4,965 nt of DNA from a virus. Lineage: Duplodnaviria; Heunggongvirae; Uroviricota; Caudoviricetes. The number at the start of each line of letters is the position of its first letter. The stretch's first letter is position 1. The stretch lies in the IMG/VR virus record IMGVR_UViG_2671180680_000009; one strand, written 5' to 3'. Made by a program: the position numbers and the translations under genes. The notes under the pieces are model-generated. The model did no database searches, was not told the DNA's origin, and saw nothing but the letters and a program-made list of their open reading frames with translations. Positions 62 through 4,965 of the stretch are shown here, in pieces.

Positions 62-263
62 CCAATTTTTTACGTACGTAAACCACTAAATGATATTTGC
101 GAGAATGCTACCGAGTATTGAAAACACCACTACAAATACATAAGCAAATCCCAACAAATAACCAACAAATAATTTCCAGTGTTATTTTTAGCCGGTTTAA
201 ATTGAACCTTCAAATTATAGAGCACTTATAAATAACAACTTCACAAATCAAACGAGAAACCAA

Positions 264-355: not shown

Positions 356-1438
356 ATGAAAAAATTAACAGTGGCAATTTCTGCTGTAGCTGCATCAGTA
401 CTGATGGCGATGTCTGCTCAGGCAGCTGAAATTTATAATAAAGACAGTAACAAGCTGGATCTGTACGGGAAAGTTAATGCTAAGCACTACTTCTCCTCTA
501 ATGATGCAGATGATGGTGATACTACTTATGCCCGTCTTGGCTTCAAAGGTGAAACCCAAATCAACGATCAACTGACTGGTTTCGGTCAGTGGGAATATGA
601 ATTCAAAGGCAACCGCGCTGAATCTCAAGGTTCCTCCAAAGATAAAACCCGTCTTGCCTTCGCTGGCCTGAAATTCGGTGACTACGGCTCCATCGATTAC
701 GGCCGTAACTACGGTGTAGCATACGACATCGGTGCGTGGACTGACGTCCTGCCAGAATTCGGTGGTGACACTTGGACTCAAACAGATGTGTTCATGACTG
801 GTCGCACCACTGGTGTTGCAACTTATCGTAACAACGACTTCTTTGGTCTGGTTGATGGTCTGAACTTTGCTGCTCAGTATCAGGGTAAAAATGACCGCAC
901 TGACGTAACTGAAGCTAATGGTGATGGTTTCGGTTTCTCCACTACTTATGAGTATGAAGGATTCGGTGTAGGTGCAACCTATGCTAAATCTGACCGCACT
1001 AATAATCAGGTTATCTACGGTAACAACAGCCTGAATGCATCTGGTCAAAATGCTGAAGTATGGGCAGCTGGTCTGAAATATGATGCGAACAACATCTATC
1101 TGGCTACCACCTATTCTGAAACCCAGAACATGACTGTTTTTGGTAATAACCATATTGCCAACAAAGCACAAAACTTCGAAGTAGTTGCACAATATCAGTT
1201 CGACTTCGGTCTGCGTCCGTCCGTTGCTTACCTGCAATCTAAAGGAAAAGACTTGGGTGCGTGGGGTGATCAGGACCTGGTTGAATATATTGATGTAGGT
1301 GCAACCTATTACTTCAACAAAAATATGTCCACTTTTGTTGATTACAAAATCAACCTGATTGATAAGAGCGATTTCACGAAAGCATCTGGCGTTGCTACCG
1401 ATGATATCGTTGCTGTAGGTATGGTTTACCAGTTCTAA
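356..1438 (+). CDS. nmpC: Outer-membrane general porin precursor, OmpC/OmpF/PhoE family, NmpC/Lc-like (prophage moron porin); 360 aa
   Basis: Start chosen at ATG 356 rather than the ORF-track start at 296. It gives a canonical signal peptide [23 protein letters not shown] with an AQA|AEIYNKD cleavage site, and AAGGG sits 6 nt upstream. The mature N-terminus [17 protein letters not shown], the PEFGGD loop-3 motif, the LAFAGLKF and YGRNYG motifs and the C-terminal ...VYQF (terminal Phe) are hallmarks of 16-strand general porins. Its position next to the Q antiterminator matches the nmpC locus of DLP12-like prophages. The ORF is uninterrupted. Confidence 0.9.
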
Positions 1439-1448
1439 TTTGATTACT

Positions 1449-1487
1449 AAAAGATATGTTGCGGGAGGCTTTGCCTCCCCAACATAT
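1449..1487 (-). terminator. Rho-independent terminator on the reverse strand (tR'-like, downstream of Q)
   Basis: ATATGTTG-c-GGGAGGC (1454-1469), loop TTT, GCCTCCC-CAACATAT (1473-1487) form a 15-bp interrupted stem. Read on the reverse strand the hairpin is followed by CTTTTAG (complement of 1447-1453). It lies about 140-180 nt downstream of the Q stop. Confidence 0.45.
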
Positions 1488-1574
1488 AAGTGGCTCCCTC
1501 AAGCCACTTCCTTTAGGAGCACAACCTTGCTTCTAACTATATAAACCTTCTGTTATATATTACCCTTTATTTTT

Positions 1575-1610
1575 GGGGGCGTTGCAACGCCCCATTTTTA
1601 ATAATTTTTA
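1575..1610 (+). terminator. Rho-independent terminator for the porin transcript
   Basis: GC-rich palindrome GGGGCGTTGCAACGCCCC (1576-1593) is followed immediately by ATTTTTAATAATTTTTA on the + strand. On the reverse strand it is followed by an A-run, so it is effective mainly for + strand transcripts. Confidence 0.6.
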
Positions 1611-1626
1611 GTAAACAATTGGCATA

Positions 1627-2010
1627 TTAATTAGAGTTATTAACAACGATATCCATCTCTAACCGGATATCTAATGCCATTAACATCCCTTCAATTATGC
1701 CCTCAGCCTTCTGTAACCTTTTCCCGATATAACCATCAGAGCAGCAATGCTTACCTGCCAGTGACATGAATGTCATACCGACTACATAATAATCTACTAA
1801 TAAATCGTGCAAATCGCTGTTGTTCTTTTTCAGACGGGCCATGCACCCGCAAATAATCATCGCGTCATCGTCACAACATTGCGGGCGAGATTTTACTTTT
1901 GAAGTAATTAATCCCTTAAAACCGGCGGCAATGGACGACCAGGTCACATCTTCATGATTATTAGCCGCCCACGCTCCCCAACGCTCAAGAACCATCTGAA
2001 TATCACGCAT
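1627..2010 (-). CDS. quuD: Late-gene antiterminator Q homolog (DLP12 QuuD-like), 127 aa
   Basis: The reverse-strand ORF begins [14 protein letters not shown] at ATG 2010, preceded by GGAG with a 7-nt spacer (GTGGAGTAAGTTGATG). The ORF-track start at 2025 is a TTG inside that RBS. Cys-rich segments ([20 protein letters not shown]) fit small Q-type antiterminators, and the gene sits at the distal end of the nin operon as Q does in lambdoid phages. Confidence 0.85.
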
Positions 2011-3764: not shown

Positions 3765-4142
3765 ATGACCAACAAAGAAAACAAAGATAAATATATTAAC
3801 AAGTTCAAGAAAGAGCTTTCAAAATATATACAACCAACTGCTGGAGTGGACATTCAATTATTTAACTCTAAGGATGGTGGTGGTGTAATTAAAGCCACTT
3901 TGAATAGAAGTGGAAAAAGAAAATCATCTATTGCTGGTAATTTTACTAAATTAGGTGAGGCAATTACCTCGAGTGGGCAGAGGGTTTTTGGTGGTGATCT
4001 ATCAAATGTGAATTTTTACGGAACAAATACGATTTTTGATGGAGATACAATATTTTTAATTAAATCACCTGATTCAGAGGAGTGGTCATCACAAAAAGCT
4101 TCCAAAGACGTAGAGGGCATCGTATTTGGAGGGAAAAAATGA
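3765..4142 (+). CDS. Hypothetical protein, 125 aa, soluble, Lys/Gly-rich, no recognised domain
   Basis: Uninterrupted ORF in a strongly AT-rich island. N-terminus is highly charged (MTNKENKDKYINKFKKELSKY), with no signal peptide or TM segment. Gly-rich stretches (SKDGGGVIK, RVFGGDLSNVNFYGTNTIFDGDTIF, GIVFGGKK). No obvious SD; a possible -10 TATACT at 3723-3728. I do not recognise the family. Confidence 0.5.
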   Translation: MTNKENKDKYINKFKKELSKYIQPTAGVDIQLFNSKDGGGVIKATLNRSGKRKSSIAGNFTKLGEAITSSGQRVFGGDLSNVNFYGTNTIFDGDTIFLIKSPDSEEWSSQKASKDVEGIVFGGKK

Positions 4143-4224: not shown

Positions 4225-4566
4225 GTGTCTGATTATTTGCAGCCAATCCCTCCCAAAAAAGATACACACTGGAGCATGATTTTCATTCCGGTAGCAATTT
4301 ATATACTACTTAATCTTGTATACATTATTGCTCACCCATTATTTCCTGAAAAATATCTAAAAACATCAACATCTATATTTCTATTCATTTCCTTCATATT
4401 AAGTGCAATAGTAGCATATTTTGTTTTCCATAAGCATAAATCTGCCACTCTATCCATATGCAGCTTAGTGTTCTTAGTGTTAATTGTAGGTGCTAACGTA
4501 GGGTTTATCAGTTACAGCGACCTAACACAAAAAGCGACGCAAAAATTAGATAGTTTGTCTAAATAA
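4225..4566 (+). CDS. Hypothetical small integral membrane protein with three predicted TM helices (113 aa from GTG 4225, or 96 aa from ATG 4276)
   Basis: Hydrophobic stretches IFIPVAIYILLNLVYIIAHPLF, SIFLFISFILSAIVAYFVF and LSICSLVFLVLIVGANVGFISY are separated by short charged loops. Same strand and composition as the upstream ORF, 82 nt downstream of it. Start is uncertain: GTG 4225 has a weak GGA 6 nt upstream, and the first in-frame ATG is at 4276. A hairpin GCCATGC-7nt-GCATGGC (4574-4594) follows the stop. Confidence 0.5.
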   Translation: MSDYLQPIPPKKDTHWSMIFIPVAIYILLNLVYIIAHPLFPEKYLKTSTSIFLFISFILSAIVAYFVFHKHKSATLSICSLVFLVLIVGANVGFISYSDLTQKATQKLDSLSK

Positions 4567-4673
4567 TTATGTTGCCATGCGAAGTATGCATGGCTGCATG
4601 TCTGCCTTCCATTTAAAATGGGCTAAGACCTATAACCCTAAATATTATTCTTTATTATCTTCTTTACCACTTC

Positions 4674-4904
4674 GGTGATGCTGCCAACTTACTGATTTAG
4701 TGTATGATGGTGTTTTTGAGGTGCTCCAGTGGCTTCTGTTTCTATCAGCTGTCCCTCCTGTTCAGCTACTGACGGGGTGGTGCGTAACGGCAAAAGCACT
4801 GCCGGACATCAGCGCTATCTCTGCTCTCACTGCCGTAAAACATGGCAACTGCAGTTCGCTTACACCGCTTCTCAACCCGGTACGCACCAGAAAATCATTG
4901 ATAT
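4674..4904 (+). mobile_element. IS1 5' portion (left terminal inverted repeat plus start of insA), truncated at about IS1 coordinate 231
   Basis: GGTGATGCTGCCAACTTACTGATTTAGTGTATGATGG... matches the IS1 left end as I recall it. It is in the same orientation as the IS1 tail at 1-61. Similarity stops abruptly after ...CACCAGAAAATCATTGATAT (4904). Confidence 0.9.
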
Positions 4905-4932
4905 TGTCAGCGCCAGTGATATAAGACGGTAA
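4729..4932 (+). pseudogene. insA: insA remnant: first ~58 codons of IS1 InsA followed by 9 unrelated codons and a stop
   Basis: [58 protein letters not shown] matches InsA as I recall it (with one substitution, A for T in QLQF[T/A]YTAS), then diverges to IVSASDIRR-stop where InsA should continue MAMNGVGCRA. No insB-encoding sequence follows within the window. Confidence 0.8.
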
Positions 4933-4965
4933 TTCGCCATTTGGATTGTCCGCTCCACCCAACAT

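Follow-up and report, generated by a model that had tools for sequence, protein, structure and literature searches.

The segment from position 1439 to about 1602 on the plus strand of the window (the whole 4,965-nt stretch of DNA analysed here) is most probably the 3' untranslated region of an Lc/NmpC-type porin gene, that is, the RNA known as IpeX together with its terminator, which is made in the porin mRNA and lowers OmpC and OmpF; we put the probability of this reading at roughly 0.8. That a hairpin cluster of this kind is IpeX, or porin 3'UTR with terminator, is already known. A tempting mis-annotation is corrected in this way: what comes right after the antiterminator gene Q in this widespread lambdoid prophage group is no late promoter but the tail of a porin gene inserted there, one that most probably makes a host-porin-silencing RNA; the promoter that really responds to Q is a well-conserved cassette and can be as far as 2-3 kb from Q.

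A porin gene and its 3' tail in a prophage fragment

The window represents part of a lambdoid prophage, with IS1 on both sides; in it the porin gene on the plus strand and Q on the minus strand are convergent, their open reading frames ending at 1438 and 1627. Its main landmarks are as follows.

1-61: sequence that we take to be an IS1 end, adjoining the truncated late promoter pR' (homology break at 61/62)
62-82, minus strand: remnant of pR', consisting of TTTACG plus the spacer TACGTAAAAAATTGG, recognised by its match to the family cassette; the -10 and everything beyond are replaced by IS1
356-1438, plus strand: porin gene of the Lc/NmpC/'OmpD' type, 360 amino acids with a signal peptide (open reading frame; Pfam Porin_1, E 3e-153)
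1436-1438, plus strand: stop codon of the porin open reading frame
1627-2010, minus strand: antiterminator Q of the QuuD type, 127 amino acids (Pfam PF06530, E 3.5e-53)
1629-1627, minus strand: stop codon of the Q open reading frame
about 4672-4905, oriented as the left IS1: second IS1, with the InsA N-terminal domain (Pfam E 1e-21)

Besides Q, the minus strand carries ybcN, ninE, ybcO and rusA. Between ybcN and the right IS1 there are two plus-strand open reading frames of low G+C content, at 3765-4142 and 4225-4566, both opposite in orientation to the early phage genes; the first (125 amino acids) has no Pfam match, and the second (113 amino acids) likely encodes a membrane protein, its Pfam matches being sub-threshold only. 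The InsA gene of the right IS1 starts near 4729, and this copy (4672-4965) is apparently truncated near 4906, where it presumably departs from the IS1 sequence.

The Q protein of the window falls into the Q21 Pfam family (PF06530) and aligns weakly with the solved structures of phage 21 Q (E 7.6e-7). Its folded part has 77% identity to the Q of 933W/VT2-Sakai and 84% to that of Lambda_2E9, and the main difference from both lies in the C-terminal tail. Nucleotide homology to the Q genes of Lambda_2E9 and VT2-Sakai ends 24-51 nt before the Q stop (1627-1650, codons ~121-127), and to judge from this alignment the last few codons (IVVNNSN) seem to be part of the inserted porin block rather than of the ancestral Q gene. 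The Q C-terminal tail, the spacer and the porin gene would together constitute an extra gene block, or 'moron', put between Q and pR'.

Homology to intact relatives begins at position 62. Both the Q-spacer-porin segment as a whole and the spacer by itself have 100% identity to functional phages, PhiR34_1 for example, and 96.7% identity both to PA-2 (J02580; lc gene) and to that part of phage 434B which derives from DLP12, and the matching phage records name the porin variously porin, OmpD, NmpC or lc. The spacer is also found in the DLP12 prophage of K-12 (L005), between quuD and nmpC, as an allele of the type seen in the 434B segment (L001). Among phage records it is limited to 36 that have both Q and the porin, and it is missing from more distant relatives of Q. 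In the abstract of their 2006 paper, Castillo-Keller, Vuong and Misra reportedly placed ipeX between the nmpC stop codon and a predicted Rho-independent terminator. The RefSeq K-12 record has no ipeX annotation, and Rfam, searched at gathering thresholds and at permissive E-values, returned sub-threshold terminator-driven matches only and no IpeX family.

IpeX has been described as a 167-nt RNA of DLP12 that arises from the porin promoter, within the porin transcript, is then processed, and represses OmpC and OmpF post-transcriptionally (PMC12197685, PMC5069750, PMC3333887, PMC8313858); its action on ompC is reported to be Hfq-independent (PMC8313858). The region studied here sits on the porin strand between the stop codon of the lc/nmpC-type porin (1436-1438) and a plus-strand terminator at 1576-1593, and from 1439 to the U-run at 1600-1605 it measures 162-167 nt, which fits the reported 167 nt (PMC12197685); the 3' end at ~1602 is placed from the terminator position. 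Since the porin gene is intact in the window, its promoter could give rise to the RNA.

Hairpins and clear or candidate terminators on the two strands

The spacer contains the following elements, all given for the plus strand.

1439-1602, plus strand: porin 3'UTR, equivalent of IpeX, with five hairpins and a single-stranded stretch (sequence identity; fold z -7.8; PMC12197685, PMC5069750, PMC3333887)
1454-1487, plus strand: hairpin H1, 8 + 7 bp with a bulged C1462 and the loop UUU (inverted repeats, fold)
1488-1509, plus strand: hairpin H2, 8 bp, loop CCCUCA unpaired (inverted repeat, fold)
1513-1536, plus strand: hairpin H3, 9 bp (fold)
1538-1559, plus strand: hairpin H4, 7 weak A-U pairs, loop ACCUUCU exposed (fold)
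1576-1609, plus strand: intrinsic terminator of the porin/IpeX transcript, a 7-bp G+C stem with a 4-nt variable loop, then AUUUUUAAUAAUUUUU (scan)

The first-pass annotation had described three hairpins between the porin gene and Q, a GC-rich palindrome among them. All three are real and were located where it had put them; two more, at 1513-1536 and 1538-1559, had been overlooked. At the first site, the inverted repeat 1454-1464/1477-1487 is 91% complementary and surrounds a perfect inner 7-bp helix (1463-1469/1473-1479); the second is a perfect 8-bp repeat, AAGTGGCT/AGCCACTT, at 1488-1495/1502-1509; and the palindrome, GGGGCGTTGCAACGCCCC, occupies 1576-1593. RNA folding of both strands, which had been suggested as a check, showed that each folds far better than its dinucleotide shuffles, the 168-nt spacer reaching -62.9 kcal/mol on the plus strand (z -7.8) and -63.5 kcal/mol on the minus strand (z -6.6). 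The plus-strand fold consists of five hairpins, namely H1 to H4 and the terminator hairpin at 1576-1593.

That palindrome had been proposed to form, with the T-run behind it, a plus-strand terminator, and the terminator scan indeed called one there: the stem has 7 pairs, 6 of them G-C, closes a 4-nt loop and is followed by ATTTTTAATA. It is the sole proper U-run terminator, and it lies on the plus strand. Across 1300-1800 the scan found 2 terminator-like sites where 0.3 were expected, the second being inside Q. Among alleles the terminator stem is invariant but for one G-U change, the loop reading TGCA, CTCA or TTCA. On the opposite strand, a T-run had been claimed after the 1487-1454 hairpin. 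A T stretch does exist there, but it is just CTTTTAG, with 4 T, or 5 in the DLP12-type allele, and the scan did not call the hairpin with this stretch as a terminator. We consider it plausible that the 1487-1454 hairpin with its 4-5 U is a weaker candidate for a terminator of Q-sense transcription, comparable, we infer, to the post-Q terminators of relatives with inserted genes; it would probably halt Q-sense read-through before it runs antisense into the porin gene. The earlier proposal of terminators between the convergent porin and Q genes therefore holds, with a clear one on the plus strand and a weaker candidate on the minus strand.

A clear plus-strand terminator facing a plausible minus-strand one could also mean that the spacer is a plain insulator, in which convergent or bidirectional terminators and mRNA-stabilising stem-loops sit at the edge of a gene block without any trans-acting RNA. 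Post-Q terminators accompany other inserted genes as well, as in Lambda_2E9 (L003) and Citrobacter amalonaticus (L094), and covariation argues only weakly for a specific RNA structure. However, five hairpins and ~140 nt from stop codon to terminator exceed what termination needs, the identical DLP12/PA-2 sequence has a published trans activity on OmpC and OmpF (PMC12197685, PMC5069750), and chance would hardly produce a 15-bp match to the ompC ribosome-binding site. We thus regard a mere insulator as unlikely, and keep to IpeX as the preferred reading of the spacer.

Which strand is made into a structured RNA can be approached through the 24 alleles of the spacer, which, being 97% identical, give very thin support from covariation. 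All one-sided stem substitutions (3/3) give G-U on the plus strand and C-A on the minus strand; in H3, the pair G1517-U1532 alternates with A-U among the alleles, and the G allele pairs on the plus strand only. The substitutions weakly favour a plus-strand RNA, the probability of 3/3 by chance being ~0.125. Two double changes among the alleles come from contigs that look error-prone. In four IMG/VR alleles (L045, L079, L085 and L086), clustered A-to-G/C changes in the spacer create runs of G and C; these look like sequencing or assembly (homopolymer) errors, which makes the four unfit for covariation analysis. The minus strand folds about as well as the plus strand, which counts against a plus-strand-specific reading. 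We nevertheless favour the plus strand, since the only U-run terminator lies there, the substitutions retain G-U pairs there, and the complementarity to ompC is found on that strand only.

The stable fold of the minus strand would also be in keeping with the idea that Q-sense read-through from the early operon, across 1626-1440, acted as an antisense regulator that silences the porin and IpeX in lytic growth. The two transcription units overlap by ~150 nt, each terminator being nearest the opposing gene, which suits such a scheme. The scheme is, however, pure inference, the wobble substitutions favour pairing on the plus strand only, and the prophage here is an IS1-bracketed fragment with no early promoter in view; we find it very improbable.

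The late promoter of this Q family

Just downstream of the Q stop, the first-pass annotation had placed a minus-strand promoter as the start of a short unit of the pR'-tR' type.

1559-1587, minus strand: earlier candidate promoter TTGCAA-17-GGTAAT, below scan criteria and rejected here as a Q-dependent late promoter

The hexamers TTGCAA (1587-1582) and GGTAAT (1564-1559) and the 17-nt spacer between them are present as it had described, but together they fail the ordinary sigma-70 criteria of the scan. The score is 8/12, the second position of the -10 being G where the key A should stand, and across 1300-1800 no minus-strand promoter-like site was called, as against a mean of 2.2 in shuffles. 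The match is therefore no better than chance.

If this element were nevertheless a promoter, transcription would start near 1552 and end at the 1487-1454 hairpin, giving a unit of ~100 nt from which Q loads onto RNA polymerase. The Q stop is directly followed by the two hexamers with their 17-nt spacing, 4-5 U come after the hairpin, and the loop variants found among alleles turn the -35 into TTGAGA or TTGAAA, neither of them a poorer -35. A -10-like TATAGT at 1541-1536 would fall at about +11 to +16, a possible position for a sigma-dependent pause element; it lies in an A+T-rich segment, where -10-like hexamers are expected, and this segment is complementary to the H4 hairpin on the plus-strand RNA.

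Homologues of this Q with 68-87% identity occur in Shigella, Trabulsiella, Citrobacter, Pantoea, Xenorhabdus, Providencia and Morganella. At 27 distinct loci from ~8 genera we found a cassette made of TTTACG, a 16-nt spacer starting with (TA/AT)CGTAAAA, and a TAnnnT -10. The -35 is TTTACG throughout except for a single TTTACA, the spacer is always 16 nt long, and the -10 is always TAnnnT. Beyond the -10, most loci continue with GNTAAGA (G(T/A)TAAGA) at the start site, a small hairpin and a terminator, and the small hairpin exhibits compensatory changes (GTGG..CCAC, GTGA..TCAC, GTC..GAC). At most loci the start of the cassette falls within a range that runs from 12 nt before the Q stop to 29 nt after it, and where extra genes are inserted the cassette lies 140 to ~2900 nt from Q.

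In VT2-Sakai the annotated late promoter, qut site and terminator overlap the Q stop, and the pR' sequence reads TTTACG-ATCGTAAAAATCTGCA-TATCAT-GATAAGAGTGGTTAC. With dRNA-seq, Sy et al. (PMC7547250) located the start of the Sp5/VT2-Sakai pR'; it lies 258 nt upstream of the 3' end that Term-seq gave for tR'. We placed it through this 258-nt distance to tR', the coordinates of NC_002695.2 being offset between genome versions; counted back from the second annotated terminator, it falls by our own arithmetic 5-7 nt after TATCAT.

In PhiR34_1 (L002, 6108-6200), VT2-Sakai (L004, 2915-3006) and L090-L114, the cassette displays an A-tract and then the palindrome TTTACG-NN-CGTAAA, which covers the -35 and runs into the spacer, unlike the TGAGCA direct repeat of phage 21. 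This palindrome is likely the Q-binding site, a putative assignment that we base on its conservation and on the precedent of Q21, whose site lies between the -35 and the -10 (PMC6606751). By eye, the direct repeat TGAGCA of Q21 (PMC6606751) was seen neither in the proposed spacer after Q nor in the family cassette. The pR' of phage 82 was left out of the comparison, the present Q being a member of the Q21 family.

In the interval 1440-1626 the cassette element TTTACG-NN-CGTAAAA is absent even at 2 mismatches, and its sole match in the window lies at 68-82. The cassette occupies the spacer between porin and holin both in PhiR34_1 (L002, 6116) and in DLP12/434B (L001, 7330). What survives of it in the window is TTTACGTACGTAAAAAATTGG only (82-62, minus strand), with IS1 in place of the -10, the terminator, the holin gene and the other lysis genes. 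As far as the sequence can tell, Q is left without a target in this fragment after the IS1 cut of pR'.

The short pR'-tR'-type unit acted on by Q is therefore contradicted, because the proposed promoter fails standard criteria, because the conserved cognate cassette of this Q family, which matches the mapped Sp5 pR' start (PMC7547250), directly follows Q in many genera, because intact phages have that cassette beyond the porin gene, in the interval that separates the 5' end of the porin from the holin gene, whereas it is missing from 1440-1626, and because only the antisense strand of the porin, and no late genes, lies downstream. In PhiR34_1, moreover, the holin gene has its own cassette and terminator before it. 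We would give such a unit hardly any chance.

Lambda_2E9 offers a further view of an enlarged post-Q region. Its post-Q terminator (AGCCAGCCTCCCCAAAGGCTGGTTTTTTTT, L003 2975-3010) resembles the Sp5 tR', or 3' hairpin of StxS (L004 3183-3214), and its pR' cassette is found 1878 nt beyond that terminator, past a lipocalin gene and a ybgA-like gene. A short likeness between the minus strand of the window and this post-Q region (ATATAACAG, GTTAGAA) is not collinear and was judged to be due to chance.

Candidate pairing with porin mRNAs and comparison with known systems

Transcription from the porin promoter would yield a porin mRNA that includes the structured 3' tail 1439-~1602 and ends at the intrinsic terminator at 1576-1593 with its U-run, the tail reportedly being processed out. 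IpeX would then lower the host's OmpC and OmpF after transcription, and the phage porin would take their place. Since OmpC is the receptor of PA-2, its decrease would also protect the lysogen. Two segments of the RNA are candidates for contact with its targets.

1544-1558, plus strand: candidate antisense seed AACCUUCUGUUAUAU, comprising the loop and 3' arm of H4 (15 contiguous pairs with ompC mRNA)
1558-1567, plus strand: UAUUACCCUU, a 10-bp complement of the ompF Shine-Dalgarno region (P 0.2, not significant alone)

The first of these, AACCUUCUGUUAUAU, forms its 15 contiguous pairs, one of them G-U, with K-12 ompC mRNA from -21 to -7, covering the Shine-Dalgarno GAGGG, and the duplex has an energy of -20.6 kcal/mol. 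A match of this length was equalled by 1 of 2000 dinucleotide shuffles (P 0.0005), whereas the same shuffle test of the minus strand against ompC gave nothing significant (P 0.35). In the fold, the H4 loop has an unpaired probability > 0.7, and nearly all of the ompF complement UAUUACCCUU falls within 1560-1575, the single-stranded stretch that precedes the terminator. The start region of the phage porin itself has no comparable complementarity to IpeX. Windowed and contiguous-helix tests were used throughout; folding of the whole-length duplex between IpeX and the porin leaders was dropped, as it gave unrealistic end-to-end duplexes.

Most likely, then, the exposed loop and 3' arm of H4 (1544-1558) would pair with the ribosome-binding site of ompC so as to stop its translation, the single-stranded UAUUACCCUU may likewise block that of ompF, and H1-H3 may serve as structural or stability modules. 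That IpeX is a base-pairing antisense RNA, whose 15-nt H4 seed occludes the ompC Shine-Dalgarno while the adjacent single-stranded 10-mer targets that of ompF, is a tentative proposal drawn from these complementarities, and we rate its chances a little short of even. The ompC seed appears to have been overlooked so far. Castillo-Keller et al. (2006) are reported to give the exact ipeX boundaries and to have found no ompC complementarity, and reviews hold that the mechanism of IpeX does not rely (only) on complementarity. This concrete candidate site, at which IpeX would pair with the ribosome-binding site of ompC, is possibly the sole new point made here and, if true, would settle the working of an RNA described in 2006.

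Read on the minus strand, 1544-1558 (ATATAACAGAAGGTT) is identical at 14/15 positions to the K-12 ompC leader (ATATAACAGAGGGTT, L118), and this is the very stretch that had earlier been taken as a promoter and start-site region. The likeness suggests that the phage may have picked up part of a porin leader in inverted orientation; a similar origin from a porin leader has been proposed for micF.

Compared with the lambda 6S RNA of the pR'-tR' unit and with StxS of Stx phages (PMC7547250), the spacer is alike in lying just after gene Q and in that a short structured Q-sense RNA with a terminator can be drawn for it. It differs from them in having neither an acceptable promoter nor the cognate Q-binding cassette, in the weak U-run at the terminator, and in that late genes do not follow. 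The real equivalent of those units is the cassette at 62-82 of the window, which is truncated, and at 6116-6200 of PhiR34_1 (L002). With IpeX of DLP12 and PA-2, in contrast, the spacer has in common the locus, the position, the strand, a length near 167 nt and a sequence identity of 96.7-100%. The differences are that the porin gene here is intact, whereas nmpC of K-12 is broken by IS5, and that the 15-bp ompC complementarity computed here is not described in reviews. Among host RNAs, the spacer resembles antisense regulators of the MicF/MicC type in its imperfect antisense seed toward the ribosome-binding site of a porin mRNA, and 3'UTR-derived small RNAs such as CpxQ, DapZ and SroC in being released from the 3' end of a coding transcript whose terminator it shares. 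Unlike all of these, IpeX is phage-borne, is tied to a replacement porin, is reported to act on ompC independently of Hfq (PMC8313858), and has a pairing site that is predicted.
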